This document shows, in pieces, positions 16,735-51,110 of a stretch of DNA of 64,000 bases. The translations under genes and the position numbers were made by a program. The notes beneath the pieces are model-generated. The model was given only the letters and a program-made list of their open reading frames with translations. It made no database searches and was not told where the DNA came from. Within the stretch, counting starts at the first letter, position 1. The number at the start of each line of letters is the position of its first letter. Source of the DNA: Nostoc sp. (GTDB lineage Bacteria; Cyanobacteriota; Cyanobacteriia; Cyanobacteriales; Nostocaceae); contig NZ_JBALFH010000002.1 in the NCBI RefSeq assembly GCF_036917095.1, positions 35,074 through 99,073 of the forward strand, in the 5' to 3' direction.

Positions 16735-17607
16735 TTATTTGGTTACTTCTGCTTTGTTTGAGTCATTAGATGGAGCTAATTCTGTCTTCTCGGATTGCGT
16801 CTCACTGGTTTGTTGCAATTGGTTGAGATGAATGTTGTTTACTTGAACAATAAAGTATTCTAATGCCTGACTTGCCTTTTGTTGTTGTTGGCTTTCATCA
16901 GACACATCATAGCAACGATAAGGCGGAGTTACTCCCAATATAAACTTCTCTTGTTCAGCTTCTAATAATTCAACGGCTGTGTTAGCAGCAAGCGAATTTT
17001 TCTGAAAAGGAAAAGAGGTAACTATACTGGCAACTATAGAAGCAATCGCTGGGCAAAGCACGGGGAGCCACTTGAGCCAAGCTTGTCCTGCTTCTAATTT
17101 GTCTACCAGAACTAAAATTGGTGTGACTCCTGATAAAATTACTGTCGCAATTTGCAAACCATAGTAAAGGTTTCTTGATACACCTCGAATTTTTTTATAA
17201 TCGTCAATCAAGTCTTGACTGTATTGTAAAGCCTTCCCTCTTGTCAGAGTCAGCGTATCTTTATTCCAGGAATTAGGATTGGTCAATAGATAACTATAGA
17301 GTTCCGCTTTTTTGGTGAGTTCTAACTGAGAAGCGGCCTTCTTATAGTTCTGAAATACTTGTCTATTGATAAGCAACAAAAAAAACACAAAAGTTAGAGA
17401 TACGGCTCCAGAAATTACAACTGTTTTATCATCTGAAAAGAAAATAATCACTAGTCCAGAAGAGACAAAAGCTGCCAGCAATAAATACTCAATTACCTTC
17501 AAGTTAAACAGCTTTTTCTCATCTGCTGGGGAGGATAAATTTTCAATCCTCTCAGAAATCTTACTTTGGTTTTTTTGGTCAAGATTAGTTAATTCAGCAT
17601 TAGTCAT
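16735..17607 (-). CDS. DUF4231 (SLATT-family) membrane protein with an extra N-terminal 2-TM segment
   Basis: 290 aa. ...YSQDLIDDYKKIRGVSRNLYYGLQIATVILSGVTPILVLV...WLKWLPVLCPAIASIVASIVTSFPFQKNSLAANTAVELLEAEQEKFILGVTPPY fits my memory of the DUF4231 pattern: W/Y-x-K-K, a 2-TM hairpin, then F-x-F-Q-x-N-W...E-x-L-x-x-E...Y. Confidence 0.55.
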   Translation of the reverse strand: MTNAELTNLDQKNQSKISERIENLSSPADEKKLFNLKVIEYLLLAAFVSSGLVIIFFSDDKTVVISGAVSLTFVFFLLLINRQVFQNYKKAASQLELTKKAELYSYLLTNPNSWNKDTLTLTRGKALQYSQDLIDDYKKIRGVSRNLYYGLQIATVILSGVTPILVLVDKLEAGQAWLKWLPVLCPAIASIVASIVTSFPFQKNSLAANTAVELLEAEQEKFILGVTPPYRCYDVSDESQQQQKASQALEYFIVQVNNIHLNQLQQTSETQSEKTELAPSNDSNKAEVTK

Positions 17608-23207: not shown

Positions 23208-24182
<975 letters not shown>

Positions 24183-24402
24183 TTAATCACCTTTTAGTAT
24201 CTCCAGGATTTTACATCACCGAGTTGTACCAATATTTATTTTTGTAAATACGAGTTTAATATTTGGTAATAAATTAAGCATTTAAATTAAGGTTTATAGC
24301 TAACTTATTTGCGAAATATTAAGCTCATATTCATCTTGATACTCAATGCTCACAGATAACTTTTAGGTAGGCGATCGCAACTCTTATTTGAAAATATTAC
24401 TC

Positions 24403-26955
24403 TCAAGATTCCAATTCGCCATCATTAAAAGACCACTCCTTCGGTTTTTCAGCTAATGAGAGAGGTAAAGGATACTCACACTCGTCAGAAGTCCACCAAT
24501 GGCGCGATCTGAGAGTGTGTGTAATTGCATGATGGAGTATAAATTTCTCAGGTGATGGCGTTGCTAGGATATTTTGAGCGCGTGGCTGCGGAGTTTTCCA
24601 ATCTTTTCTACGTTCGGGATTGCGAGTAATATTTTTTGTAATGCACTTACCTGTCTGAGAATCAAGTTTAGTTATTGATTTTCCATCTTTGGTAGTTTCT
24701 TTTTCGTATCCCCTTACTATCCAAGCTTGATAACGGCTCATCTGTTTAGCCAATTTGTTAGTCCGAGACTTTTCAGCAATGCTTAGGACTGTTTGAGTAA
24801 ACGCAGTTGTATTCAGATGGCAGTTTTGTGGAATAAACATTCCTTTTGTAAAAGAGGCTGTACCTTTTATGAATGTTTCTTGCTTTGTATTAAGTCCATA
24901 TCCTTGCGGAACTTCATTATTCATTCTGTCACGTACACGAACAATGTGAATTTTGTTTGTCGGTGGTTTATCTGGCTCGAACTTGCTGTCTTGTAACCAA
25001 GTCCAATAGCTGCGAGCATTTTGACCGTGAACAAATAGATATATATCGTCAGCAGCAGAGTATGTCTGGCTCAATGTAGTCAGCATATTACTGATAACTT
25101 GATCGCAATTAACCTTAGATGTTCTGTGCTTTGCTAATTCGCAAATTGTATCAGGCATGGTTCTAAAATGCAGATCCCTCTGAGGTAATAACACTCTGAC
25201 TTCATTCTTATAAATTGCCACTAAAATTGGCTCATTAAAACTTTGGCTTGCTGTTGTCTGGTTCCGCCGACTTACATACAAAGCAGCATAGACAGTGTTA
25301 TCGTCAGGAGTTGATAAAGGGTAATTTAGGTCGAATGGCAAAATGGCATCCAGAATTGCAGCAAGAGCACGATTATAAAGATTCTGTTGCAAATCTTCGT
25401 CTGTTCTGGCTTCCCCAGTTTCATTATTATCTACCTTCTCTGTGGACAAGATGCACTGAGGAATAAAATTGTATTTAGGTAAAAGAGATTTTAGATAAGG
25501 TTTTGGATCTTGATTACCACGATATCTAGTATGGTCTGGAGATAGAATTTCTATGATCATCGGCATTGGATGTTCAGGTTGATTCTGCTGCCCAAATTCT
25601 CGAATACGACGGTCATTGATAATTGTTCGACCGTTTCTTTCTATCTCTTCTAAAGGATCGGCTAAACCTTCGGATGTATAAAACTCTAGATTGAGACTGT
25701 TGCCAAAGTAATGCTTGGCAACGAATGCAAGAGCGTCTCGGACTTCTTCTGTGCGGTAACGTACTTGAATAGTTAAGTTATTTGCTCGTTCAGCTAAGAA
25801 TACCTGTAAGTTTCTACTAATATCGGGAAGTTTTCCCTTGGAAGGTCTATTAATAATTGGCGTGTCTTGAAATCGCTGCTTAATGGATTTATTCAAGTCT
25901 GTCTTAACAGTTATCTTTTGCCAGGGAGGAGAAATTATAACGCTAGGTGGTAATATATCTTTGATTTGTTTAAGTAATGTTCTCTCGTCCTCAAAAGTAA
26001 ATCCTGTTCCCCATCCCGCCTTCTGATAGACTCGTGCAGGAACCAAAATATCTGTCTGGTCTGTTTGAAGAAAATTTAATGGGTTTGCCAAGACATCCGT
26101 TATGTTTGGAATTTGCACTGATAAACGTTCTAAAATTTGGCTCACCTGTCGGTTTTTCCATTGGGGGACATACTCAGTTCCTTCCCGACGGTAATTTGCT
26201 TCCAGAACCGTAAAGGCATTTGGCTGTAGTAGGTTGTAGTCTCCTAGCCAAGATCGTAATCTACGAACATAGCATCTTGTAGTACGTTTCTCTAACCGAA
26301 TATCTGAGTCCTTTCCTTGTTTAACTATCCAACGCTTCATCTGAAAGTGAAGGTTGATTTTTTTAGGATCTATATCACTTTGAGTTGATATAACAAGCGC
26401 CACAGATGCTCGATGACCATGCGTATTTGAAAACGGCGGCCAAGATACAAGTTCAACAGTATTTCCGCTTCGTCCTGGGCCAAATAAAAACTTGAATGAA
26501 TTTTCTCCTAGTTGATATTCGTGCTTGCTGAGTTCCCACGCGATCGCCCAAGAAGGTGCCCAAAATTTGAGATGATTAGGTGCTGCTTCAGTCCAATGAA
26601 ACTGATCGACACTGCAATATGGTTTTAACGCTTTATGTTCTGATTCTGGGTAGCATACTTCAACCCATCTCTTGAATATAAGAGCTAGAATCTCTGGGTC
26701 AACTTCTTCATAAGCCAGAAAAGTAGCGGGGTTTGGTTCGCCATTAACCATCAACTTATTGTCGATAAAGCGGATCTGTGGCAGCAATAATCGGATCGTA
26801 TTAAGTAATGAAGTTGTTGGGGCGTTTTCTTCAGGTTCTCCATAATGGGTATTAAATTTTTTTAAATTGGGAAACGGCATCACAAAACCAGTGATATCCC
26901 TGACCAATTTCTCGTTATATTCAAGGTAGATGGGCTGGTAGTAATTAATACTCAA
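24403..26955 (-). CDS. Large PIWI-like protein, candidate PIWI-RE family member. Third gene of the three-gene island.
   Basis: 850 aa. Its TTG start overlaps the upstream stop (TTGA). It has a MID-like Y487-x-K489...Q500, VRVRD676 resembling the Argonaute xRDG strand, and a C-terminal YPLPLSLA (828-835) resembling the Ago C-terminal PxPxYYAHLA. The family call rests on these weak motifs plus operon context. Confidence 0.5.
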   Translation of the reverse strand: MSINYYQPIYLEYNEKLVRDITGFVMPFPNLKKFNTHYGEPEENAPTTSLLNTIRLLLPQIRFIDNKLMVNGEPNPATFLAYEEVDPEILALIFKRWVEVCYPESEHKALKPYCSVDQFHWTEAAPNHLKFWAPSWAIAWELSKHEYQLGENSFKFLFGPGRSGNTVELVSWPPFSNTHGHRASVALVISTQSDIDPKKINLHFQMKRWIVKQGKDSDIRLEKRTTRCYVRRLRSWLGDYNLLQPNAFTVLEANYRREGTEYVPQWKNRQVSQILERLSVQIPNITDVLANPLNFLQTDQTDILVPARVYQKAGWGTGFTFEDERTLLKQIKDILPPSVIISPPWQKITVKTDLNKSIKQRFQDTPIINRPSKGKLPDISRNLQVFLAERANNLTIQVRYRTEEVRDALAFVAKHYFGNSLNLEFYTSEGLADPLEEIERNGRTIINDRRIREFGQQNQPEHPMPMIIEILSPDHTRYRGNQDPKPYLKSLLPKYNFIPQCILSTEKVDNNETGEARTDEDLQQNLYNRALAAILDAILPFDLNYPLSTPDDNTVYAALYVSRRNQTTASQSFNEPILVAIYKNEVRVLLPQRDLHFRTMPDTICELAKHRTSKVNCDQVISNMLTTLSQTYSAADDIYLFVHGQNARSYWTWLQDSKFEPDKPPTNKIHIVRVRDRMNNEVPQGYGLNTKQETFIKGTASFTKGMFIPQNCHLNTTAFTQTVLSIAEKSRTNKLAKQMSRYQAWIVRGYEKETTKDGKSITKLDSQTGKCITKNITRNPERRKDWKTPQPRAQNILATPSPEKFILHHAITHTLRSRHWWTSDECEYPLPLSLAEKPKEWSFNDGELES

Positions 26956-29900
26956 AGTTTCACTCCGTGAATGAAATGGGTTAGTCGAGTTAGCGGGTAA
27001 TAAACTGGCCCATACAGGGTTTTGATCAGCCTTCCAGAAGCACCACCTTTATTGATTGCGCTGCCCAAGAGCTTGCGGGCAGCTAACAAAATAGAGTTTT
27101 GCTCCGAATCCCCAGACGAATTTCCCTTTGCGGTTTCTGGCATAAACGCGGCATCTACAAACCAGACAACTGTTTTGCGACCACCGCGAGTACTACGTCC
27201 GATTAATTGAGTTAAATTAACCGTTAACGTCCAGATAAGCGGCGTTTTGAGCGCAATTTTAGCGATTTTATCAGGTAATCGAGAAAAAATTTGCGGGATT
27301 GTAAGAAAAGTGTCTCGTGCATGTCGAGCATGTCTCTGAATAACCTCGACGGCTAGTTTGTCGATGATATCTATCGTTTCCTTATTAACCCCACTGATAA
27401 CTGTTTGATTATCGTCTGGGCTAGGGTGCTGTCTAACAGCAATCACCATACCACCAAAGTATGGCTCTCCAGTCAAGGGATGCATCATGTTAATAGCACG
27501 AGATATAGCACCCATTGGCGCAATTAAAAACTCCTTACCACGGCCTGGAAACTCAGTGAGTTTAGACCGAGAAACCTGATCGTCTGAAACCCAGCGACCA
27601 TCTTGAACAACGTAAGATGCCCTATCAAGATAGGGATTTTTTAGAGAATTGTAAAACGCCTTAGCTTCTGCATAGCTATTTGTCACAATTAGCAGATTTT
27701 TGCGATCACTACCAACATTTGCTGCTAAATAATCTTGAAATTGCTCAAGTAGTGGCTTACCTTGTTTGCTTTTACGGCAAAGTCCTGCAATCATCCGACT
27801 AATGTTCTCCTGCCGATCATCCCCTTGACTACCGGAGATAAAGACAGGATTTCCTGCATCATCGACAACGGGGCAATAAAAGAATTCACTGTCATGCGCT
27901 ACCGCTTTAGACTTCTCAGGAGGCGGTTCAATTAACAAAGTTGGCTTTAATTGCACATGAAAAGGATATGATTGTTCAGTATTTCCTGAGTAACTAGTTG
28001 CTGATGTAACTAACAAATTTGCTGGAGTCAGCCCATCTATGCTGAAGATAGAATTCCATTGGCTTAGAAGTGACCTACCCAAGGCAATCCCGCGAAATAT
28101 TCTAAGTTGTCTGTTGAGGAATTGAGCGCTAGTTACGGAACCAACAGGAGAATTAGGTAACAAGCTTTCAAAGTCACTTGGAGGGGTCATTGGTAAGGTA
28201 GATTCCAGGTCAACGCTAGCGTAACCTCTAGCAGATACGTGTTTACCTAATGCACCTAATACATGGGCTGCATAAATGGCTAGTTGCAGTAATTTAGCAA
28301 GGTTGTCTATGAAGCGCTCGACATCAGATTCTAGTTGTTCAAATTTAATATCCCATCGCGTTGTTTGAATAAACTTTTTGCAGTTAGGATGGGGTACTGT
28401 AGTGAGCAAGTCTCCTGCTAATAATGCTCCAGAAACTAATGCTAAACGTTCTGCAACTACTGTGTCACTAGAGTTAAGACCAATGGTGTCAGGGCTAACA
28501 GGATTATTTTGTATTCGCTTAAAAATTTCACGGTAGCGATCGTAGTTACGCTGATATTTAGATAAGGTTTGTTTTCGGATTTTGTTAGCACTACTTTGAA
28601 CATGTGCTAATCCTGAAAGTTGTTCAGCTAATTTATCAAAAAATGTCCAAGCTGTAAATAATCTTCCTTCCTGGGTATATGCTTTTAACAGGTTTTCAAT
28701 TTCTTGACGGGAACTTTTACCTTTAATTGTGTTTGTAATATTTCTCATCAAATACATTAAAGCCCCAATTCCTCGGTTGGCTAAATGTCGTTGATCTTCT
28801 GACTGTTCTAAATAAGGATCGCGGTATCTCCCTGGCACAACCACTTCGCCTTCCATCAGACCATGTACATGTTGATAAGATTCAGTTCTTGTCCATGTAT
28901 CTTGCAACAAATCGAAAGATGCAAGTGTCTCTGTAGGATAGAAAATTTCATCTAGCTTGGGTTGAGCAAGATCAACTTCATCAATGATTAACAAATCTGT
29001 TGTTAGTGCTAAATATTCAAGGATGGTAATATTTTCAGTCAAATTGTGTGGAGCAACTTTCTTCTGAATAAACCCTTGTAAAGTTCCAACTATGAGTTGG
29101 GCATTTTCTAATGTATTAGCTTTAATATGTCTGGGACAGATAGGAGCTAGGGGACAACTATAAACCTTATTCGGATCATTAACATCTTGTAGCTTGCCGA
29201 AGCATGGTGGTCTGCTACGCTGACCACTTGATGTTTGTGGAATCTGAGGCTGTGCCAAGCTATACAATGGACAGGATTGTGACAGCCATTTGAAACCAGG
29301 ATGGGTGAAAGGCTGCTGTTTGTTACTGAACATTACAGCCTGATTTAATCGGCTGAGGTGCTTGTGTCGTTCCGATTCTCCAATAATCGGAACTGCCCTG
29401 ATCCCAACTTTTTGAGCAAATTCAAGCCAGTTTTGTACTTCACCTACACTATTTGTAGCAATCGCAACTCTTTTATTGCTATCTACCAAGAGTGCAACTA
29501 GGCAATCAATTAGGGTGGATTTGCCACTTCCAGTCGGGCCTAAAATATGACCTTCTCCATCAATAAAAATCTCTCTAGCTTCTTGATCCTGTTGAATATC
29601 CCAATAGGTTGACTGATTAAGTATTTGCCCTGCGTCGTACCCTAAAATAGGTTTCAATTCAGTTCCTTTCTTAATCAAATCAGCTAGGGGTATTTTGATG
29701 GACTGACGATCCTTGGAAAGATTAATGCTGGGAATTTGAGTGGCATACTTTACACCAATATTGGCAATTTCTTTTGAAATTCTGATTGTGCGCGTCTGCT
29801 GTGGATTAATGTTGAACTCGTAGTCACCAGCCGGGGCTGGTCTATATTTCGTTTGCCGAAACTTTAATGGCTCTTGAGTCAGCAGCCTTTCGTATAGGTC

Positions 29901-30284
29901 ATACCGAGCCAATGCCATCTTTTTAGTTGGCGTAATTTTGTTGCTTGGGTAGTCGATGTCAAAACCTAGCCAACCAGAAGCCGAACTTTTGGCAACGTCA
30001 TCATAGCTACGGAGAGCAATTTCCCAGCTAATTGAACTACGGAATTCTGGCGCTAAATGGCGTAGATGCTTCAAGATATCCCACTGTGCATCTGTCGTAC
30101 CTGGCTCTCGGTAGCCTTGCATCAGTAAATGTGCTTTCCGAATAGCTTGGTCAGGGAAATGAGTCCACAGAGCATGAAGCATTAATTCTGTACGGGCAAA
30201 ATCGGAAAATTTCATCTCAATCGGTGGTGATTCACCTCCCATTACTTTTTTTAGCGCCTCATTCAAAGTACTGCTATCTCTCAC
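26952..30284 (-). CDS. DinG/XPD-like superfamily-2 helicase with a putative 4-Cys Fe-S insertion and a long N-terminal extension
   Basis: 1110 aa with Walker A GPTGSGKST (249-257) and Walker B IIDEVD (433-438). Cys338, Cys361, Cys377 and Cys383 lie between them. A motif VI-like QLIGRSTRGGRK sits near the C-terminus. The GTG start overlaps the upstream stop (GTGA). Confidence 0.7.
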   Translation of the reverse strand: MRDSSTLNEALKKVMGGESPPIEMKFSDFARTELMLHALWTHFPDQAIRKAHLLMQGYREPGTTDAQWDILKHLRHLAPEFRSSISWEIALRSYDDVAKSSASGWLGFDIDYPSNKITPTKKMALARYDLYERLLTQEPLKFRQTKYRPAPAGDYEFNINPQQTRTIRISKEIANIGVKYATQIPSINLSKDRQSIKIPLADLIKKGTELKPILGYDAGQILNQSTYWDIQQDQEAREIFIDGEGHILGPTGSGKSTLIDCLVALLVDSNKRVAIATNSVGEVQNWLEFAQKVGIRAVPIIGESERHKHLSRLNQAVMFSNKQQPFTHPGFKWLSQSCPLYSLAQPQIPQTSSGQRSRPPCFGKLQDVNDPNKVYSCPLAPICPRHIKANTLENAQLIVGTLQGFIQKKVAPHNLTENITILEYLALTTDLLIIDEVDLAQPKLDEIFYPTETLASFDLLQDTWTRTESYQHVHGLMEGEVVVPGRYRDPYLEQSEDQRHLANRGIGALMYLMRNITNTIKGKSSRQEIENLLKAYTQEGRLFTAWTFFDKLAEQLSGLAHVQSSANKIRKQTLSKYQRNYDRYREIFKRIQNNPVSPDTIGLNSSDTVVAERLALVSGALLAGDLLTTVPHPNCKKFIQTTRWDIKFEQLESDVERFIDNLAKLLQLAIYAAHVLGALGKHVSARGYASVDLESTLPMTPPSDFESLLPNSPVGSVTSAQFLNRQLRIFRGIALGRSLLSQWNSIFSIDGLTPANLLVTSATSYSGNTEQSYPFHVQLKPTLLIEPPPEKSKAVAHDSEFFYCPVVDDAGNPVFISGSQGDDRQENISRMIAGLCRKSKQGKPLLEQFQDYLAANVGSDRKNLLIVTNSYAEAKAFYNSLKNPYLDRASYVVQDGRWVSDDQVSRSKLTEFPGRGKEFLIAPMGAISRAINMMHPLTGEPYFGGMVIAVRQHPSPDDNQTVISGVNKETIDIIDKLAVEVIQRHARHARDTFLTIPQIFSRLPDKIAKIALKTPLIWTLTVNLTQLIGRSTRGGRKTVVWFVDAAFMPETAKGNSSGDSEQNSILLAARKLLGSAINKGGASGRLIKTLYGPVYYPLTRLTHFIHGVKL

Positions 30285-31324
30285 TTCAAAACTCCCTTGA
30301 CACGCTTAATTAATTCTGACTCTGAAAAAACAGGCAAATTTCCCTTATACCGACTTTTAAAAGCTGCTTGGTATGCTAAATTTGTCCATCGGTAATCTGG
30401 GATTACAAAGAATGATTGAGATTGGCCAATATTTGGAATCGTATCTTGATTTAATTCTCTAGCTAACATGGTGGCGCTTCCCCAATCTTTCGCGTCAATT
30501 GCCCAAATATCTCCAGTCGGTAGTGTCACTTTCAGATCAGCCTTGTCTAGTTCTGGCCATAGTTCTACTTGCAATCCCATTTTTTCGAGAGTTCGAGCTA
30601 AACGCAATTCTATGAGCGAAGGTCTAATTAGGCAGATGACGGTATCTTCTATCGGTGCTCTATCTACTCGTCCTTCTAATGGTTCACAACAGCCTTCGAT
30701 ATCTCGTGCGGCACAATCCAAATATCCACCGCAAGTCTTGCATAATGGCATTGACTCAGATTGCGGTGGTGCATCCCGATATGCTTGCATCAATAGGTCT
30801 AAAACTGGATCGATATCAGGATTATTAGAGCGAAATAAGGCAATTATTAAATCCGAAGGAAATGGGTTCTCAGCAATAAATCGACGGAAAAGTGTGTAGG
30901 TACTGTGGGGTAAGCTAAGTCGTTCAATTTCTGCCATTAGGCGTGGAATGTAGCTTTGATTCTGCTCTCGTTCCAAATTTAATGCGTATCTGCTAGCCCA
31001 AGCTTCGCATTCTTCTGAGGGGCGCGTCATATTTCCAATTAATGGGTCTTCAGGATAATCGACGAATTCGGAAAAGTCTGGCTCAACTGCCTCTACTGAC
31101 TTTCTGGCCCCCTCAACCATACACAATATAGCTGGATGTCGCATTTCCTCATCCCGCAGTATCCATTTCAAACTCAATCCTTGAAATGCTTCATATAATG
31201 GCTGTGGAAACGGTTGTGAGTCCTCGACTAGATAAGCTGGCTCACCTCGGTTAATGCGATCGCAAATCTGCACAAGTCCTTTACATAACTTGATGAGCAG
31301 AATTTCATCCTCACTGAATTGCAT
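30281..31324 (-). CDS. PD-(D/E)xK (restriction-endonuclease fold) protein with a Cys cluster. First gene of the three-gene island.
   Basis: 347 aa with E239...D272...D277-A-K279 (LPTGDIWAIDAKDWGS) and the cluster C195-x2-C198-x5-C204-x7-C212-C213. Confidence 0.6.
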   Translation of the reverse strand: MQFSEDEILLIKLCKGLVQICDRINRGEPAYLVEDSQPFPQPLYEAFQGLSLKWILRDEEMRHPAILCMVEGARKSVEAVEPDFSEFVDYPEDPLIGNMTRPSEECEAWASRYALNLEREQNQSYIPRLMAEIERLSLPHSTYTLFRRFIAENPFPSDLIIALFRSNNPDIDPVLDLLMQAYRDAPPQSESMPLCKTCGGYLDCAARDIEGCCEPLEGRVDRAPIEDTVICLIRPSLIELRLARTLEKMGLQVELWPELDKADLKVTLPTGDIWAIDAKDWGSATMLARELNQDTIPNIGQSQSFFVIPDYRWTNLAYQAAFKSRYKGNLPVFSESELIKRVKGVLK

Positions 31325-31475
31325 ATCCAGACTTTTATATAGCGATATTGACCGTTATTTTAATACGTTTGAACTACTTTTTAGACTTTAAGAATATTTA
31401 TAATCACGTTATTATTCATCGAGGTAGACTAAATGTTTATAGCCCCCTCGATTTCCCATATAAATTTACCTTTAA

Positions 31476-33413: not shown

Positions 33414-33734
33414 TTAGCTAGTTGCTTGCACAGGTTGTTGCTGAGACACATTACCTGGCATAGGTTCCATTTTGGTTTCAGGCCCTACAGGAGTGAGTTC
33501 AATATGATTTAACAAGGTAGTGACAAACGCAAACAACAAGAAAGGTAGCGATAACAGAACGACCAGACCCGCTGTTGCTAAAGCGTACACGGGTCGCTTG
33601 GCACCCATTAGCGCCAAGGCTGATGCCAAACTTAGGGTAATTGTAATCAACCAAACAATTATTTGACCGTAGATATCACCGAAAGTCAGGGTACAGACAA
33701 ACCGATACTTTTGAATATTATTTCCGATCATCAA
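33414..33734 (-). CDS. Hypothetical small membrane protein (two TM segments)
   Basis: 106 aa with hydrophobic stretches IIVWLITITLSLASALALMG and LATAGLVVLLSLPFLLFAFVTTLL. Confidence 0.5.
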   Translation of the reverse strand: MMIGNNIQKYRFVCTLTFGDIYGQIIVWLITITLSLASALALMGAKRPVYALATAGLVVLLSLPFLLFAFVTTLLNHIELTPVGPETKMEPMPGNVSQQQPVQATS

Positions 33735-37005: not shown

Positions 37006-37196
37006 AAATAACTTTGACTCCTTAGATATTTAGGAGCCTACAAGTAAGATTCAAACTAGATTTCTCAGTTAGCTGGATCTTATCAGGACTCCAAAAGATA
37101 AATCATATCATCCATCTTTAGGAGTAGAAATATTTACCACCAGATTAGTATTACTGTTATACACAGAATATGCTCTGTGTATTAAAAGCTCGAAAA

Positions 37197-37288
37197 CGGA
37201 GAGGGAGGGATTCGAACCCTCGGTACGGAGTTGCCTGCCGTACAACAGATTAGCAATCTGCCGCTTTCGACCACTCAGCCACCTCTCC
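37197..37288 (-). tRNA. trnS: tRNA-Ser(GCU), class II, canonical
   Basis: The reverse complement is GGAGAGGUGGCUGAGUGGUCGAAAGCGGCAGAUUGCUAAUCUG...GAGGGUUCGAAUCCCUCCCUCUCCG, with anticodon loop UUGCUAA, a long variable arm and a canonical T loop. Confidence 0.9.
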
Positions 37289-37330
37289 ATGACTCACGAA
37301 TATCAATGTTACCAGAGTTGCTCTTAAGAG

Positions 37331-41235: not shown

Positions 41236-41334
41236 CCCAAGTGCATTCAAGTTGCATATTAGCGATTGCCAAAAGGCTAACTAAGATTGCATTTCTTATT
41301 TTGAATTTTAAATTTTAAATTTTTAATTATTTAG

Positions 41335-41405
41335 TGGGTGGTATAGGGGTCGAACCTATTTCTGCGGGTTAAAAGCCCGCTGCACAGCCGGTATGCCAAC
41401 CACCC
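41335..41405 (-). tRNA. trnK: tRNA-Lys(UUU). Last gene of the array.
   Basis: Acceptor GGGUGGU/ACCACCC, anticodon arm GCGGG-CUUUUAA-CCCGC, T arm AUAGG-UUCGACC-CCUAU. No encoded CCA. Confidence 0.7.
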
Positions 41406-41464
41406 TAGTTAATTTGAAAAAAAAATGAGCAAGTGCAATTTGTAATACCAACATTAGATATAAA

Positions 41465-41536
41465 TCCACCAGGGAGGTACTGCCCCTCCTATTTCTGTGT
41501 TATCAGCACAGCGCCTCGCTTTTCGGCTTCAGGTGG
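41465..41536 (-). tRNA. tRNA-Ile(GAU)-like, atypical
   Basis: Anticodon arm CUGUG-CUGAUAA-CACAG. The T loop is GGCAGUA instead of UUCRANU. There is one U-U mismatch in the acceptor and a 3-bp D stem. Confidence 0.4.
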
Positions 41537-41542
41537 AAAAAG

Positions 41543-41625
41543 AGGAAGATGGAGGAATCGAACCCCTACAGTTGCCCGTACTCCAAGGTTCAAGCTTGGT
41601 TGCCGTCCATTCAGCAGCATCTTCC
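41543..41625 (-). tRNA. trnS: tRNA-Ser(UGA), class II (83 nt)
   Basis: Acceptor GGAAGAU/AUCUUCC, anticodon arm CCAAG-CUUGAAC-CUUGG, a long variable region and T loop UUCGAUU. Confidence 0.6.
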
Positions 41626-41632
41626 ATTCAGG

Positions 41633-41707
41633 GGTATCTGACGGGGCTTGAACCCGCTATGACTGGTTCCACAAACCAGCGCCTCGACCACTTTGGCTTC
41701 AGACACC
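41633..41707 (-). tRNA. trnH: tRNA-His(GUG) with encoded G-1
   Basis: G-1 opposite C73, acceptor GUGUCUG/CAGAUAC, anticodon arm CUGGU-UUGUGGA-ACCAG, T loop UUCAAGC. Confidence 0.75.
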
Positions 41708-41713
41708 AAAAGT

Positions 41714-41786
41714 GGATACTGGTCGGATTTGAACCGACATCTTTCTGCTTGCAAGGCAGACGCTTTCCCAGTTAAGCTACAGACCC
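41714..41786 (-). tRNA. tRNA-Ala(UGC)-like with a defective acceptor stem
   Basis: Anticodon arm UCUGC-CUUGCAA-GCAGA and T arm GUCGG-UUCAAAU-CCGAC. The acceptor GGGUCUG versus CAGUAUC has two mismatches and lacks the G3-U70 pair. Confidence 0.4.
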
Positions 41787-41793
41787 ATTAAAC

Positions 41794-41820
41794 CAATTCG
41801 CAATTCGCAATTCGCAATTA
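41794..41820. repeat. Heptamer tandem repeat (CAATTCG x3)
   Basis: caattcgcaattcgcaattcgcaatta is read directly. Confidence 0.8.
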
Positions 41821-41821
41821 C

Positions 41822-41890
41822 GTTTTGTGACGGGGATTTAAACCCCGACACAAAACACGCTGCTTCCATAAGCAGGGGACTTAAACCCCC
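41822..41890 (-). other. Two T-arm-like hairpins (possible tRNA remnants or minihelices)
   Basis: The minus strand reads GGGGG-UUUAAGU-CCCCU, then GUUUUGUG-U-CGGGG-UUUAAAU-CCCCG-U-CACAAAAC. The second is an acceptor-like helix stacked on a T-arm-like hairpin. Confidence 0.35.
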
Positions 41891-41982
41891 AAACTTTATT
41901 AAATAAGTTACCAGTTAACAGTTCGTTCGCGTTGGGGTAGCCTGCTGTTAGACATAGTGCAATCGTAATCTACAAACTCAGT

Positions 41983-42639
41983 TTATTTACTGCTATAAAG
42001 TTTTGCCCAATAACCTCTAGGAGGTTTCTCAATCTCATAAGCTTTACACCATTTTTCTACTGCCTTATCACTTACACCAAAATCTTGAGCTATGTGAGCA
42101 GTTGGTTTAGTCCATACTAGCTCGTGTAATTCTTCTTTAGATGGACGTTCAACCTTTCTAGACTTAGGTCTTGCCGAATAACGCCTTTTCATTTTTACTC
42201 GGCTTGCTTGACGTTGAAAATCTTTAATATTCCCGTTGAAAACGTTTGATTTAATTTCGAGAAAGTCCTCCCACCAATAAAAAGGAGAACTAATATTGGG
42301 TAGATCGGTTCTAATTATGATACCTCGGTAATCAAAACTGGGGTAAATAACCCGATCTTTATCTGGTAAGTAAATGGCGTAGTAATCAAAATCATCTTTC
42401 TGATACTGGCGTTTATGATTTCCATGCTTATCATTCCATGATGTATTAGCGAAAATTCGCCCAATGCTAGAATATTTAACCTGGATTTTCAGAAAGTTAT
42501 TTTCCTTCCATGCTACTAAATCAAATGGCAAGTGTTCGCAAATCAAAGGGGTGAAAATTACATAACCTTTAACAGTCAAATCAGCTATGGTTTTCGCTAC
42601 AGCTAGGTCTGCTTTTCCTTTTGTATGATGAGTGTTCAT
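41983..42639 (-). CDS. PD-(D/E)xK endonuclease of the group-I-intron-associated (I-Ssp6803I-like, PDDEXK_5) type with a C-terminal HTH-like tail
   Basis: 218 aa. The N-terminus TKGKADLAVAKTIADLTVKGYVIFTPLICEHLPFDLVAWKENNFLKIQVKYSS fits KG..aE..v...l...G..V..P......DLv......l.iQVK. The C-terminus is HIAQDFGVSDKAVEKWCKAYEIEKPPRGYW. Confidence 0.65.
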   Translation of the reverse strand: MNTHHTKGKADLAVAKTIADLTVKGYVIFTPLICEHLPFDLVAWKENNFLKIQVKYSSIGRIFANTSWNDKHGNHKRQYQKDDFDYYAIYLPDKDRVIYPSFDYRGIIIRTDLPNISSPFYWWEDFLEIKSNVFNGNIKDFQRQASRVKMKRRYSARPKSRKVERPSKEELHELVWTKPTAHIAQDFGVSDKAVEKWCKAYEIEKPPRGYWAKLYSSK

Positions 42640-42641
42640 GA

Positions 42642-42690
42642 ATTGAACCTAAATAATAAGAACAAATTTATCATTATTTAGGTTCAATTA
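42642..42690. repeat. Perfect 15-bp inverted repeat immediately upstream of the endonuclease ATG
   Basis: ttgaacctaaataat ... attatttaggttcaa with a 15-nt loop. Confidence 0.75.
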
Positions 42691-42700
42691 TGCCCACCCA

Positions 42701-42744
42701 CTGAGTATGGCGTACTCAGATGCTACCGATTACATCACACCCGC
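42701..42744 (-). pseudogene. Truncated tRNA-Gly-like 5' part: acceptor, D arm and anticodon arm with GCC
   Basis: GCGGGUGUGAUGUAAUCGGUAGCAUCUGAGUACGCCAUACUCAG shares its first 15 nt with the adjacent tRNA-Gly(UCC). No T arm or 3' acceptor strand follows. Confidence 0.5.
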
Positions 42745-42753
42745 AATGTTCAG

Positions 42754-42824
42754 AGCGGACGGCGAGATTTGAACTCGCACGAAGACGGTGGAAACGTCTC
42801 ATGCTGCCGTTACATCACACCCGT
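42754..42824 (-). tRNA. trnG: tRNA-Gly(UCC)
   Basis: Anticodon arm AGACG-UUUCCAC-CGUCU and T arm GCGAG-UUCAAAU-CUCGC. The acceptor ACGGGUG/CGUCCGC has an A1-C72 mismatch and two G-U pairs. Confidence 0.65.
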
Positions 42825-42828
42825 ATCA

Positions 42829-42901
42829 AGCTGGTAACAGGAATTGAACCTGCAACCTACTGATTACAAGTCAGTTGCTCTGCCAATTGAGCTACACCAG
42901 C
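42829..42901 (-). tRNA. trnT: tRNA-Thr(UGU)
   Basis: GCUGGUGUAGCUCAAUUGGCAGAGCA-ACUGA-CUUGUAA-UCAGU...GCAGGUUCAAUUCCUGU-UACCAGC-U. Confidence 0.8.
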
Positions 42902-42909
42902 ACTAATTT

Positions 42910-42987
42910 TGGTGACGGGGGCAGGAGTCGAACCTGCCGATATTCAGGTTATGCAGCCCCACGAGCCACCGTTGCTCTATCCCCGCA
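42910..42987 (-). tRNA. Aberrant tRNA (Met/fMet-like CAU or Cys GCA) with an apparent 8-nt anticodon loop. CCA is encoded.
   Basis: The loop is CUGCAUAA between poorly paired UGGGG/CCUGA. There is a mismatch at acceptor position 1-72, the T arm is GCAGG-UUCGACU-CCUGC, and the 3' end is ACCA. Confidence 0.4.
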
Positions 42988-42997
42988 TATTCACCAA

Positions 42998-43070
42998 TAC
43001 CCCTGACTGGATTTGAACCAGCAACCTCTTCGTTCTAGGCGAAGCGCCTCTTCCGTTGGGCTACAAGGGC
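42998..43070 (-). tRNA. Class I (short variable arm) tRNA with the Leu anticodon UAG
   Basis: GCCCUUGUAGCCCAACGGAAGAGGCG-CUUCG-CCUAGAA-CGAAG-AGGUU-GCUGGUUCAAAUCCAGU-CAGGGGU-A. It has C33, G1-U72 and A73. Confidence 0.55.
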
Positions 43071-43073
43071 AAA

Positions 43074-43148
43074 GTCTGAGTGGCAGGGATTGAACCTGCG
43101 ACCTGGAGTTCCCAAAACTCCCGCGCTCCCAACTGGGCTACACTCAGA
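43074..43148 (-). tRNA. trnP: tRNA-Pro(UGG), copy 1
   Basis: Acceptor UCUGAGU/ACUCAGA, anticodon arm GGAGU-UUUGGGA-ACUCC, T loop UUCAAUC. Confidence 0.7.
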
Positions 43149-43153
43149 TATTT

Positions 43154-43229
<76 letters not shown>

Positions 43230-43233
43230 TTAG

Positions 43234-43307
43234 TACCCCTGACAGGATTTGAACCTGCAAAATCTGGACTCTGATTCCAGCACGTATGCCAGTTCCGTCA
43301 CAGGGGC
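43234..43307 (-). tRNA. Class I tRNA with the Leu anticodon CAG
   Basis: GCCCCUGUGACGGAACUGGCAUACGUG-CUGGA-AUCAGAG-UCCAG-AUUUU-GCAGGUUCAAAUCCUGU-CAGGGGU-A. Confidence 0.6.
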
Positions 43308-43310
43308 ATA

Positions 43311-43383
43311 TCGGGATGGCAGGATTTGAACCTGCGACTCCATGCTCCCAAAGCATGGCTTCTGGCCGCTGAATTACATCCCG
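43311..43383 (-). tRNA. trnP: tRNA-Pro(UGG), copy 2
   Basis: CGGGAUGUAAUUCAGCGGCCAGAAGC-CAUGC-UUUGGGA-GCAUG...GCAGGUUCAAAUCCUGC-CAUCCCG-A. Confidence 0.8.
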
Positions 43384-43384
43384 T

Positions 43385-43462
43385 TGGTACTCCTGGTGGG
43401 AGTCGAACCCACAACCAAACAGATTTTAAGTCTGTCACCTCTTCCAATTGGGCTACAGGAGC
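43385..43462 (-). tRNA. Class I tRNA with the Leu anticodon UAA. CCA is encoded.
   Basis: GCUCCUGUAGCCCAAUUGGAAGAGGUG-ACAGA-CUUAAAA-UCUGU-UUGGUU-GUGGGUUCGACUCCCAC-CAGGAGU-ACCA. Confidence 0.6.
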
Positions 43463-43468
43463 AAATTT

Positions 43469-43545
43469 TGGTGCTCTTGGTGGGAATCGAACCCACAACA
43501 TACCGTTTTTGAGACGGCAGCCTCTTCCAGTTGGGCTACAAGAGC
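43469..43545 (-). tRNA. Class I tRNA with the Leu anticodon CAA. CCA is encoded.
   Basis: GCUCUUGUAGCCCAACUGGAAGAGGCU-GCCGU-CUCAAAA-ACGGU-AUGUU-GUGGGUUCGAUUCCCAC-CAAGAGC-ACCA. Confidence 0.65.
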
Positions 43546-43550
43546 AAGTT

Positions 43551-43626
43551 TGGCAGCCCCGCCAGGACTCGAACCTGGAATCTTCGCCTTCAAAGGGCGC
43601 TATGTTGCCAATTACACCACAGGGCT
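43551..43626 (-). tRNA. trnQ: tRNA-Gln(UUG). CCA is encoded.
   Basis: Acceptor AGCCCUG/CGGGGCU, anticodon loop CUUUGAA, T arm CCAGG-UUCGAGU-CCUGG, G73-CCA. Confidence 0.75.
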
Positions 43627-43629
43627 TTA

Positions 43630-43702
43630 TTGCCAGGGCAGGGTTTGAACCTGCAACCTCATCGTTCAGAGCGATGCGACTTACCAATTCGTCCACCCGG
43701 CA
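43630..43702 (-). tRNA. trnQ: tRNA-Gln(CUG)
   Basis: Acceptor UGCCGGG/CCUGGCA, anticodon arm CAUCG-CUCUGAA-CGAUG, T loop UUCAAAC. Confidence 0.75.
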
Positions 43703-43707
43703 ATGAT

Positions 43708-43782
43708 TGGCTGCCTCAGTAGGACTCGAACCTACAACCGCGCGGTTAACAGCCGCTTGCTCTACCGTTGAGCTATGAGGCA
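43708..43782 (-). tRNA. trnN: tRNA-Asn(GUU). CCA is encoded.
   Basis: UGCCUCAUAGCUCAACGGUAGAGCA-AGCGG-CUGUUAA-CCGCG...GUAGGUUCGAGUCCUAC-UGAGGCA-GCCA. Confidence 0.8.
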
Positions 43783-43788
43783 ACGAAG

Positions 43789-43863
43789 CCCCCCAGGTCG
43801 GAATCGAACCGACGACCTCCTGTTCTTCAGACAGGCGCTAACTACCAACTGAGCTACCGGGGG
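43789..43863 (-). tRNA. trnF: tRNA-Phe(GAA)
   Basis: Acceptor CCCCCGG/CUGGGGG, anticodon arm CCUGU-CUGAAGA-ACAGG, T arm GUCGG-UUCGAUU-CCGAC. Confidence 0.7.
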
Positions 43864-43870
43864 ATAAGGA

Positions 43871-43937
43871 GGAGAGATAGGTTTTACCCAGTGGACTGGT
43901 TTAATTCAACTCGAATTAGCCACTCCATCATCTCTCC
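43871..43937 (-). other. 67-nt tRNA-Ser-like remnant or structured spacer without a T arm
   Basis: GGAGAGAUGAUGGAGUGG...CCUAUCUCUCC has a perfect 7-bp terminal helix GGAGAGA/UCUCUCC and a Ser-like 5' end. The interior folds as a hairpin (UAAUUC-GAGUU-GAAUUA), not a cloverleaf. Confidence 0.35.
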
Positions 43938-43944
43938 CATGTAA

Positions 43945-44019
43945 CGAGAGTGGAGGGATTTGAACCCTCACGTCTTCAGTTTCGTAGACTGAGATGTTAT
44001 CCAGTTACACCACACTCTC
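43945..44019 (-). tRNA. trnR: tRNA-Arg(ACG)
   Basis: Acceptor GAGAGUG/CACUCUC, anticodon arm UCAGU-CUACGAA-ACUGA, T arm GAGGG-UUCAAAU-CCCUC. Confidence 0.75.
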
Positions 44020-44023
44020 AAAA

Positions 44024-44113
44024 CGGAGAGAACAGGATTTGAACCTGCGACGGATATTAACTACCCGTTTCCTCTTAGCAGGAGGACGCTTTCAGCCACT
44101 CAGCCACCTCTCC
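44024..44113 (-). tRNA. trnS: tRNA-Ser(GCU), class II. Array copy.
   Basis: GGAGAGGUGGCUGAGUGGCUGAAAGCG-UCCUC-CUGCUAA-GAGGA, a long variable arm, then GCAGGUUCAAAUCCUGU-UCUCUCC-G. Confidence 0.8.
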
Positions 44114-44117
44114 ATAG

Positions 44118-44200
44118 TGGGTCGAGCAGGATTTGAACCTGCGTGCAAAAAAGAACAGTTTTACAGACTGTCGCCTTCAGCCAGACTCGGCCACCGACCC
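44118..44200 (-). tRNA. trnY: tRNA-Tyr(GUA), class II
   Basis: GGGUCGGUGGCCGAGUCUGGCUGAAGGCG-ACAGU-CUGUAAA-ACUGU, a 12-nt variable region, then GCAGGUUCAAAUCCUGC-UCGACCC-A. Confidence 0.7.
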
Positions 44201-44207
44201 ATAATCA

Positions 44208-44279
44208 TTCCCTCGACGAGAATTGAACTCGCATCTGTGCTTTGAAAGAACACTGACTTAACCATTAGTCCACGAGGGC
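44208..44279 (-). tRNA. trnE: tRNA-Glu(UUC). Array copy.
   Basis: Anticodon arm GUGUU-CUUUCAA-AGCAC and T arm GCGAG-UUCAAUU-CUCGU. The acceptor GCCCUCG/CGAGGGA has a G1-A72 mismatch. Confidence 0.65.
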
Positions 44280-44341
44280 ATAATTTACCGAATTTTAGAT
44301 TTTGGATTAAATTTATTAATCTAAAATCTAAAATTGTCTGA

Positions 44342-44413
44342 CACAGGGACTAGGATTTGAACCTAGAACATCGGATTTGGAGTCACGAGGTGTTACCGTT
44401 ACACCATCCCTGC
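44342..44413 (-). tRNA. tRNA-Trp(CCA)-like with a disrupted anticodon stem (possible pseudogene)
   Basis: The loop CUCCAAA is typical of tRNA-Trp, but the flanks CGUGA/UCCGA give only 2 to 3 base pairs. The acceptor GCAGGGA/UCCCUGU and T arm CUAGG-UUCAAAU-CCUAG are intact. Confidence 0.4.
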
Positions 44414-44416
44414 ATT

Positions 44417-44493
44417 TGGTGGCAGCGGCGGGATTTGCACCCGCATATACCAGGGTATGAACCTGGGGCTTTGCTGATTAAGCTACGCTGCGA
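44417..44493 (-). tRNA. trnM: tRNA-Met(CAU) with a 1-72 mismatch. CCA is encoded.
   Basis: Anticodon arm CCAGG-UUCAUAC-CCUGG and T loop UGCAAAU. The acceptor CGCAGCG/CGCUGCC has C1-C72 unpaired, which is initiator-like. The 3' end is ACCA. Confidence 0.6.
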
Positions 44494-44496
44494 CAG

Positions 44497-44570
44497 AGGT
44501 CAGGGCGGGATTTGAACCCGCGCTAATCGGTTTTGCAGACCAACGCCTTCAACCACTTGGCTACCTGACC
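44497..44570 (-). tRNA. trnC: tRNA-Cys(GCA)
   Basis: Acceptor GGUCAGG/CCUGACC, anticodon arm UUGGU-CUGCAAA-ACCGA, U73 discriminator. Confidence 0.8.
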
Positions 44571-44573
44571 ATT

Positions 44574-44650
44574 TGGGAGTCCCGACGAGATTTGCACTCG
44601 CAATCTTCAGTTTGAGAAACTGACGGCTTAAACTATTCGCCTACAGGACT
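44574..44650 (-). tRNA. trnE: tRNA-Glu(CUC). CCA is encoded.
   Basis: Acceptor AGUCCUG/CGGGACU, anticodon arm UCAGU-UUCUCAA-ACUGA, T loop UGCAAAU, C73-CCA. Confidence 0.65.
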
Positions 44651-44654
44651 ACAA

Positions 44655-44728
44655 CCAGGGTGACGGGACTTGAACCCGCAACATTTCCGCAGACAACGGA
44701 ACGCTCTAGCCAGTTGAGCTACACCCCG
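44655..44728 (-). tRNA. trnD: tRNA-Asp(GUC). First gene of the array.
   Basis: Acceptor CGGGGUG/CACCCUG, anticodon arm UUCCG-UUGUCUG-CGGAA, T arm GCGGG-UUCAAGU-CCCGU, G73. Confidence 0.75.
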
Positions 44729-44738
44729 ATTTTTGGGA

Positions 44739-50934: not shown

Positions 50935-51037
50935 ACCTTATGTATAGTTAAACTATCATTCAGTTTTGTCCCTGAATGATAGTTTAATTTCGCAGATTTC
51001 CAGCAAAAGTATTTTTTGCTTTTTGATTGTTTTTAAG

Positions 51038-51110
51038 TACCCCCAGGGGAATTCGAATCCCCGTTACCTCCGTGAAAGGGAGGTGTCCTAGGCCTCTAGA
51101 CGATGGGGGC
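51038..51110 (-). tRNA. trnE: tRNA-Glu(UUC), canonical chromosomal copy
   Basis: GCCCCCAUCGUCUAGAGGCCUAGGACACCUCCCUUUCACGGAGGUAACGGGGAUUCGAAUUCCCCUGGGGGUA. Confidence 0.92.

Follow-up and report, generated by a model that had tools for sequence, protein, structure and literature searches.

A chromosomal pPIWI-RE operon in Nostoc with an Argonaute-like protein predicted not to cleave

Identification of a pPIWI-RE system between sdhA and por

A 64,000-nucleotide stretch of the Nostoc sp. chromosome (assembly GCF_036917095.1, contig NZ_JBALFH010000002.1, positions 35,074 to 99,073; hereafter the window) carries three minus-strand genes between sdhA and por, the gene for light-dependent protochlorophyllide reductase, which we identify with near certainty as a chromosomal pPIWI-RE three-gene system of a divergent cyanobacterial subclade. 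The pPIWI-RE module was predicted by Burroughs, Iyer & Aravind 2013 (PMC3702460) as a candidate bacterial immune system, from a set that already included a cyanobacterial member, Acaryochloris. The name "PIWI-RE system" is that used by Swarts and colleagues, and the "pAgo type III" of PADLOC (pAgo, prokaryotic Argonaute) denotes the same systems, according to Olijslager et al. 2024. This kind of system has been known since 2013, and the locus is a correct call of a known system, not a discovery; its only unexpected feature is the loss, across its clade, of the name-giving glutamate together with several basic residues. The identification is based on profile matches for all three proteins, on the Argonaute fold in a confident model of the third, on the strict order restriction endonuclease (REase), DinG, PIWI with start/stop overlaps that recurs in eight other cyanobacterial loci, and on the homology of the helicase to the DinG of the Pseudomonas stutzeri PIWI-RE operon. 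The three open reading frames (ORFs) are as follows:

30281 to 31324, minus strand: gene 1 (PprRE), ATG start, a 347-aa restriction-endonuclease-fold protein with a helical Y-like N-terminus, a Zn ribbon and a PD-(D/E)xK domain
26952 to 30284, minus strand: gene 2 (PprDinG), a 1110-aa superfamily 2 (SF2) helicase, probably of DinG/XPD type, that begins with a Z domain; the GTG start overlaps the gene 1 stop
24403 to 26955, minus strand: gene 3 (PprPIWI), an 850-aa protein of long-Argonaute-like architecture; its TTG start overlaps the gene 2 stop

An earlier reading of the stretch, made from the sequence alone, had described these genes as joined by 4-nt start/stop overlaps, GTGA at 30281-30284 and TTGA at 26952-26955, and the coordinates are exactly as it gave them. 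It had also proposed that the genes encode the REase, DinG-type helicase and PIWI-RE protein of the module, an assignment that the profile searches bear out gene by gene. With the Pfam models of the module (PF13111/PF18157/PF13032/PF18154/PF18155/PF18156), gene 1 matched pPIWI_RE_REase (1.3e-27, 96.6 bits, cutoff 26.1) and, weakly and under its cutoff of 26.7, pPIWI_RE_Y (1e-3, 19.9 bits). Gene 2 matched pPIWI_RE_Z (PF18155; 5.8e-34, 117.9 bits, cutoff 25), while gene 3 matched pPIWI_RE_X (PF13111; 1.1e-23, 84.4 bits, cutoff 30.5), RNaseH_pPIWI_RE (PF13032; 4.6e-20, 73.0 bits, cutoff 25) and MID_pPIWI_RE (PF18157; 2.4e-5, 25.0 bits, slightly under the cutoff of 26.6). The PADLOC run that the sequence-only reading had suggested called PprRE (2.4e-19, residues 37-333), PprDinG (2.6e-99, full length) and PprPIWI (7.7e-88, residues 2-845). 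The exact 850-aa protein is already annotated in UniRef as "pPIWI_RE module", and no NCBIfam model matched any of the three proteins.

Measured against pPIWI-RE systems as described, the Nostoc operon shares the gene order and translational coupling, a helicase with N-terminal Z domain and four-cysteine insert, a nuclease in which a Zn ribbon precedes the PD-(D/E)xK domain, and a PIWI protein with X and PIWI regions, a probable MID region and an extra helix after the first beta-meander. It differs in that its Y and MID domains score just below the Pfam cutoffs and in that the cyanobacterial clade, which accounts for one of the 147 clusters of 50% identity found with the clade profile, is only ~20% identical to other family representatives and changes the name-giving Glu (A793) as well as the near-invariant R539, R670, R721 and H833.

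The sequence-only reading had called the system functionally undescribed and knew of no experimental work on it. The second statement is contradicted by Huang et al. 2022 (PMC10991935), who studied the P. stutzeri homologue, PsPIWI-RE, in vitro and by knockout. The first largely stands: the module has long been recognized (Pfam, PADLOC, UniRef) and one homologue has been studied, but the searchable literature to mid-2026 yielded no other experimental work on PIWI-RE, no defence phenotype and no system-level mechanism, and sequence searches yielded no structure, so that the operon does not belong to a characterized system with an established function.

Fold and guide pocket of the Argonaute-like protein

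The product of gene 3 is divided into three regions:

25864 to 26865, minus strand: N-terminal pPIWI_RE_X region (aa 31-364), in the place of the N-L1-PAZ-L2 half of long Argonautes
25342 to 25614, minus strand: core of the MID domain (aa 448-538), with the pocket residues D483-P484-K485, K489, Q500 and R529
24415 to 25296, minus strand: PIWI (RNase H-fold) domain (aa 554-847)

An AlphaFold2 model built on a 111-sequence family alignment reached a mean predicted local distance difference test (pLDDT) score of 91.6 and a predicted template modelling (pTM) score of 0.92, and replaced an earlier model from 29 close sequences in which the PIWI domain had a pLDDT of 67. Foldseek returned 109 PDB matches to the confident model at E <= 1e-3; the top 50 were all Argonaute or PIWI proteins, aligned over their full length at E 1e-13 to 4e-11, among them KmAgo, PliAgo, RsAgo, PfAgo, human AGO1/2 and animal PIWIs. 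For the 850-aa protein, both significant pPIWI-RE profile matches and an Argonaute fold were thus obtained, as the sequence-only reading had expected. PDB sequence searches with each of the three proteins and with clade-wide and family-wide PIWI profiles returned no relevant chain. Compared with the long pAgos (KmAgo, PliAgo, RsAgo, PfAgo and TtAgo), the overall fold is alike (Foldseek E ~1e-13, full-length template modelling scores of 0.35-0.48), whereas sequence identity is ~8-12%, no classical PAZ, MID or PIWI Pfam model matches the protein, and the Nostoc protein has an additional PIWI-domain helix and an obligatory operon with nuclease and helicase. The helix is seen in the secondary structure of the model, where strands 554-564, 573-582 and 585-589 are followed by a helix at 600-609, which corresponds to the extra helix that the family carries after the first beta-meander. 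The column before it holds W in 82/104 representatives and F597 in the window protein.

Within the MID domain, D483-P484-K485, K/R489 and Q500 are invariant in the family and present in the window protein, and R529 is a further conserved pocket residue; R539, near-invariant elsewhere in this domain, is L. A weak hhalign match (E 0.005) places K489 on TtAgo K422 and Q500 on TtAgo Q433, two residues that we take to be 5'-phosphate ligands, and the likeness of the pocket to that of long pAgos extends to this Lys and Gln. Outside the MID domain, hhalign gave no significant alignment between the PIWI family and TtAgo. The sequence-only reading had singled out Y487-x-K489...Q500 as MID-like; K489 and Q500 are indeed conserved in the family, but Y487 is specific to the cyanobacterial clade.

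Slicer positions and the loss of the name-giving glutamate

The catalytic positions were assigned by mapping PsPIWI-RE, whose gene sequence was taken from the supplement of Huang et al. 2022, onto the Nostoc protein via the family profile hidden Markov model (HMM). The mapping draws on this alignment and on the secondary structure of the model, and covers three catalytic positions, those of the DEDX tetrad other than the glutamate finger. In PsPIWI-RE, mutation of D525 or D610 abolished cleavage, and the name-giving R639 and E718 were dispensable in vitro, the E718A protein being fully active (PMC10991935). By profile-HMM mapping, the correspondence is:

PsPIWI-RE D525: Nostoc S562
PsPIWI-RE D610: Nostoc G644, with H643 adjacent
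PsPIWI-RE R639, the name-giving Arg: Nostoc R673
PsPIWI-RE E718, the name-giving Glu: Nostoc A793
PsPIWI-RE H758 (in PLH-LA, the equivalent of Argonaute YAH-LVA): Nostoc S833

Not one of the 29 clade members has an acidic residue at either aspartate position. Judged from the alignments, absent slicer residues are the norm of the family, because among 104 non-cyanobacterial representatives only 6 are acidic at the first position, 34 at the second and none at both; the missing residues had been pointed out by Burroughs 2013 (PMC3702460) and Huang et al. 2022 (PMC10991935). By the same alignments the loss of the glutamate is peculiar to the cyanobacterial clade. Column 793 holds Glu in 102/104 non-cyanobacterial representatives but in 0/29 clade members, which have A, S, I, V or L there (Acaryochloris included), and column 833 is Ser or Thr in 29/29 clade members, compared with His in 87/104 of the others. 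The name-giving Arg (R673) is kept in 29/29 clade members and 99/104 other representatives. Since PsPIWI-RE E718A kept full activity, we regard the loss of the glutamate as a deviation of the subclade and not as a reason for exclusion from the family.

Two candidate assignments were dropped after this mapping: an aspartate at column 582 or 676 as a catalytic residue, and VRVRD (672-676) as the Argonaute RDG strand. The latter comparison came from the sequence-only reading; the RDG equivalent lies at H643/G644, and VRVRD is the next strand, the one that carries R673. Its other comparison, of the C-terminal YPLPLSLA (828-835) with PxPxYYAHLA of Argonautes, agrees with the C-terminal PxPLxLA motif, which is equivalent to PxPxYYAHxxA.

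With S562 and G644 in place of the aspartates and A793 in place of E718, the window PIWI protein is predicted not to cleave. Relative to PsPIWI-RE it is a member of the same family (the profile of the Nostoc protein's family scores PsPIWI-RE at 3e-24) that shares the name-giving Arg, Ps R639 being Nostoc R673, and differs at these three positions. The absence of acidic residues at the aspartate positions in all 29 clade members, together with the conserved MID pocket, argues for a sensor and not a slicer.

It is tempting to go further and to see the cyanobacterial clade as a form of PIWI-RE with a function of its own, a long-Argonaute-like sensor that is obligately non-cutting, although we hold this as a tentative and somewhat doubtful proposal. 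Lost from the clade are the Glu partner of the R-E pair, the His that stands at the catalytic position of Argonautes, and three basic residues that are otherwise near-invariant, one of them beside the 5'-phosphate pocket; an invariant D676/R792 pair has been gained. If the proposal were true, the guide end or the duplex type might differ from those of other PIWI-RE proteins, and target hand-over to a DinG helicase and a separate nuclease would amount to a DdmDE-like mechanism of independent origin.

The helicase and the nuclease

The helicase encoded by gene 2 contains the following elements:

29733 to 30218, minus strand: pPIWI_RE_Z domain (aa 23-184), by Pfam
29514 to 29540, minus strand: Walker A motif GPTGSGKST (aa 249-257), invariant
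29136 to 29273, minus strand: four cysteines, C338, C361, C377 and C383, which lie between the two Walker motifs and may form a 4Fe-4S cluster domain
28971 to 28988, minus strand: Walker B (motif II) IIDEVD (aa 433-438)
27174 to 27209, minus strand: helicase motif VI, QLIGRSTRGGRK (aa 1026-1037), invariant

The sequence-only reading had located GPTGSGKST at 249-257, IIDEVD at 433-438 and GRSTRGGRK at 1029-1037, with four cysteines between the two Walker motifs as in XPD/DinG Fe-S helicases, and all of these are where it put them. The four cysteines (338, 361, 377 and 383) are invariant in 7 orthologues, about 320 residues separate Walker B (433-438) from a TSAT motif (760-763), and motif VI is common to the helicase of the P. 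stutzeri operon, where it reads LTQLIGRGRRGG. It was by Fe-S-type cysteines, spacing and motif features of this sort that Burroughs 2013 (PMC3702460) placed the helicase of the module in the DinG clade. The protein is homologous to the DinG beside PsPIWI-RE, matching its C-terminus with 28% identity (E 4e-13), and the P. stutzeri operon is alike in that its own dinG and piwi genes overlap by 4 nt (ATGA). The PADLOC model typeIV_DinG matches residues 248-595 (7e-5), and the Pfam models DEAD_2 and Helicase_C_2 gave no match to gene 2.

The nuclease encoded by gene 1 has two elements:

30686 to 30742, minus strand: Zn-ribbon cysteine cluster (C195, C198, C204 and C213)
30290 to 30616, minus strand: PD-(D/E)xK domain (aa 237-345), the Pfam pPIWI_RE_REase match

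The cysteine cluster, also noticed in the sequence-only reading, is invariant at C195, C198, C204 and C213 in 7 cyanobacterial orthologues, C212 being variable, and lies in the position of the Zn-ribbon element that Burroughs 2013 (PMC3702460) described in the nuclease of the module. The same reading had given the nuclease core as E239...D272...D277-A-K279. All of these residues are present, and E239, D277 and K279 are conserved in relatives; D272 is not, but D263 is, and the PD-(D/E)xK core is likely to be E239...D263...D277-A-K279.

Conservation, exchange and selection

The sequence-only reading had made its case depend on co-conservation of the three genes, and this was found: eight further cyanobacterial loci, representing five different flank contexts, carry the intact operon with REase first, DinG second and PIWI third. 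Four of these are Nostoc loci at the same sdhA-por site (JL33, UHCC 0702, NIES-2111 and a sequencing-run contig with the NIES-2111 protein), and in Pleurocapsa, Crocosphaera, Hormoscilla and one metagenome contig the neighbours are wholly different. A survey of sdhA, comprising 80 retained loci that were the best tblastn matches in a species-representative genome set (79-98% sdhA identity), found the operon beside sdhA in 0/80, several contigs being uninformative as they end shortly after sdhA. In four island-free Nostoc genomes whose sdhA is 96-97% identical, por lies 0.5-2.9 kb downstream of sdhA, with other content or none in between; these genomes are more closely related to that of the window than are two strains with the island. 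The idea that the por-sdhA junction might be empty in relatives holds for a near-empty gap of 540 bp in one genome (L015), while several other Nostoc have other content there.

The content of the sdhA 3' flank varies: L007 and L011 have small unknown ORFs there, L012 a FUSC-family transporter and L013 an AAA_21 ATPase pair, and the flank is rearranged to an S41 peptidase and GcpE in L006, L008-L010, L013 and L014. The possibility that it is a dedicated defence hotspot found no support: in other Nostoc genomes it holds a transporter, small ORFs, a desaturase, a kinase or rearranged core genes and, as the one defence-like item, the AAA_21 pair.

Each of three comparisons (with L090, L001 and L002) put the synonymous divergence (dS) of the island ~1.2- to 6-fold below the values for its flanks, sdhA and por. 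The PIWI gene is a mosaic in which codons 351-398 and 699-849 are much more diverged than the remainder. The low dS of the island and the mosaic gene suggest that Nostoc strains may exchange the module by recombination at a fixed position between sdhA and por. Taken together, patchy presence at one locus, island dS below that of the flanks and GC below that of the window point to an accessory, defence-like behaviour.

These observations bear on an alternative that we consider improbable, in which the module serves genome maintenance by resolving R-loops, replication-transcription conflicts or chromosome segregation, as suggested for TtAgo and PsPIWI-RE. Its attraction lies in the P. stutzeri piwi-re deletion, which is ~15-fold more ciprofloxacin-sensitive and filamentous (PMC10991935), in the activity described for DinG on R-loops, in the several pAgos that protect against ciprofloxacin, and in the place of the Nostoc island among core genes. 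A core function is nevertheless hard to reconcile with a patchy presence in which genomes 96-97% identical in sdhA have no island and more distant ones do, or with the different flanks in other cyanobacteria, and low GC combined with dS below the flanks marks an accessory, exchangeable module.

All three genes are under purifying selection, the ratio of nonsynonymous to synonymous divergence (dN/dS) in three independent comparisons being lowest in the nuclease (0.05-0.08), intermediate in the helicase (0.10-0.13) and highest in the PIWI protein (0.18-0.26). These ratios (0.05-0.26 overall) and the invariance of the nuclease core, the Zn-ribbon cysteines, Walker A and B, the four helicase cysteines and motif VI indicate functional integrity. 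They also make it very improbable that the operon is a decaying or selfish remnant, either non-functional or kept only as an addictive nuclease module. One might think of decay on seeing a PIWI protein that has neither catalytic residues nor the conserved Glu, or a helicase gene split in Crocosphaera (L085), but the three ORFs are intact, nuclease and helicase keep their catalytic and binding motifs unchanged in sequences that are ~50% divergent, and most of the whole family is likewise devoid of the catalytic aspartates, so that their absence is no sign of decay. In the Crocosphaera chwakensis locus in question (L085, 4617-7943), the DinG-like gene is called as 1038 aa with a separate 63-aa ORF, and the split may be due to a frameshift or to faulty sequencing close to the 3' end.

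Proposed mechanism and alternatives

Reading the three proteins together, we propose that the PIWI protein is probably a guide-loaded sensor with helicase and nuclease as its effectors. In the first of four steps, the 850-aa protein would bind a short nucleic-acid guide, with the 5' end held in the MID pocket (K485, K489, Q500 and R529). The guide would then base-pair with a complementary sequence of the invader, the product most likely being a DNA:RNA heteroduplex or R-loop. In the third step the PIWI protein, itself non-cutting as it has no catalytic aspartates, would recruit or license the putative Fe-S helicase of DinG type to unwind the target or translocate on it, and finally the Zn-ribbon PD-(D/E)xK nuclease would cleave the DNA. 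A heteroduplex target is suggested because PsPIWI-RE cleaves only the combinations RNA guide/DNA target or DNA guide/RNA target (Huang et al. 2022, PMC10991935) and because Burroughs 2013 (PMC3702460), arguing from the known R-loop activity of DinG, predicted RNA-dependent restriction of invading DNA by the module. The mechanism as worded in these four steps has, in our estimate, about an even chance of being right, and the pPIWI-RE identity and the sensor-effector mechanism taken as a whole are slightly more likely than not to be the explanation of the locus.

Two named systems have a comparable logic, DdmDE being the nearest analogue in mechanism. In DdmDE of Vibrio cholerae, as is proposed here, an inactive Argonaute-like protein finds the target by its guide and an SF2 helicase and a PD-(D/E)xK nuclease destroy it. 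According to reviews, DdmE is a short pAgo with an INS domain and DNA guides, and DdmD is a fused helicase and nuclease, whereas the Nostoc Argonaute-like protein is full length and its helicase and nuclease are separate polypeptides. PADLOC matched neither its DdmD nor its DdmE model to the operon, and there is no detectable sequence relationship; DdmE was among the Foldseek matches of the earlier, poorer AlphaFold model. Type IV-A CRISPR-Cas with CasDinG likewise combines a non-cutting, guide-bearing targeting complex with a DinG-family helicase, as proposed for Nostoc, but the Nostoc targeting module is Argonaute-like and not Cascade-like, and the window has neither a CRISPR array nor a cas gene.

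Several findings weigh against a guide-directed sensor-effector system. A guide, target, interaction partner or phenotype has been reported for no complete PIWI-RE system. The sole experimental homologue is ~20% identical and, unlike what is predicted for the window protein, catalytically active, and the only in vivo phenotype reported for it is ciprofloxacin sensitivity, not defence (PMC10991935). The clade has lost the near-invariant basic residues R539, R670 and R721 along with the Glu at 793, and its nucleic-acid binding may therefore differ from that of the rest of the family. As regards the helicase, its hhalign comparison with E. coli DinG was non-significant (E 0.14), leaving the DinG clade without statistical confirmation there; the sole stretch in this match sets C377-x5-C383 on E. 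coli DinG C199-x5-C205, whose two cysteines we take to be Fe-S cluster ligands. Finally, tblastn with the PIWI protein turned up no homologue among the plasmids of PLSDB or the phages of INPHARED, a scan of the viral contigs of IMG/VR was likewise empty, and no defence genes neighbour the operon in the window, so that guilt by association lends no support here.

An inactive PIWI protein with a separate nuclease could also act by abortive infection, in which guide-dependent recognition would switch on indiscriminate DNA degradation and kill or arrest the host. Short pAgo systems, SPARDA and long-B pAgo-nuclease systems work in this way, inactive pAgos with effectors often do, according to reviews, and in the Nostoc operon the PIWI protein is predicted to be inactive and the nuclease gene stands first. 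We nonetheless think this unlikely, as a processive helicase partner fits directed destruction of the target, as in DdmDE and CasDinG, better than collateral killing, and as Burroughs 2013 (PMC3702460) favoured targeted restriction.

Flanking DNA and other features of the window

The neighbours named in the sequence-only reading were matched by NCBIfam-type models, sdhA by NF004613 (1212 bits) and por by TIGR01289 (7.7e-162), and the AT-rich non-coding borders that it described have 28.5% GC on both sides, compared with 41.1% in the island (rank 8/114 among 7-kb windows) and 43.1% in the window:

31325 to 31475, minus strand: sdhA-REase intergenic region, 151 bp, 28.5% GC
24168 to 24402, minus strand: the 235 bp between PIWI and por, 28.5% GC; contains a HIP1-like site, GCGATCGC

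A hairpin directly 3' of the sdhA stop codon is kept in island-free Nostoc (L015), as are, in island-free Nostoc, the final ~80 bp ahead of por, and the AT-rich DNA beyond the hairpin presumably holds the operon promoter. A weak promoter-like site lies at 31439-31411; promoter-like and terminator-like sites were no commoner than in shuffled sequence. No direct or inverted repeats were found at the island ends.

Just upstream of sdhA, a 106-aa ORF at 33414-33734 (minus strand) has no Pfam or NCBIfam match; it occupies the same position in most of 13 Nostoc loci inspected and is called as a 105-aa gene in L001, L002 and L090. Elsewhere, the window holds a dense array of ~27 tRNA genes at 41334-44729 (minus strand), with further tRNA genes at 37196-37289 and 51037-51110. 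Duplicates occur in the array (Pro-tgg twice, Cys-gca twice and five Leu isoacceptors), and one aberrant tRNA, at 44340-44414, has an anticodon loop that is malformed. The array is similar to the long clusters of tRNA genes found in Anabaena and other Nostocales. Inside it, between tRNA-Ala and tRNA-Gly, a 218-aa ORF (41983-42639, minus strand) matches PDDEXK_5 (8.8e-19) and no NCBIfam model. A 290-aa ORF at 16735-17607 (minus strand) carries a DUF4231 domain (3e-9), which we take to be a SLATT-like membrane domain often present in conflict-system effectors. Tandem repeats within ORFs at 5139-5900 (period 345, 2.2 copies) and 56858-57183 (period 126, 2.6 copies) probably mark repeat-domain proteins.

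Implications

PIWI-RE is the one recognized branch of pAgo immunity for which we found no solved structure, guide, target or demonstrated phenotype in defence, and any tractable example therefore has experimental value. The Nostoc locus is a clean case: its operon is intact and subject to purifying selection, genetic tools exist and cyanophages are known for the genus, and natural strains with and without the island exist at one chromosomal site. The existence of a whole clade without the name-giving glutamate is a small correction to the definition of the family, and the prediction that its PIWI protein is a pure sensor sharpens the hypothesis that helicase and nuclease would be the effectors.

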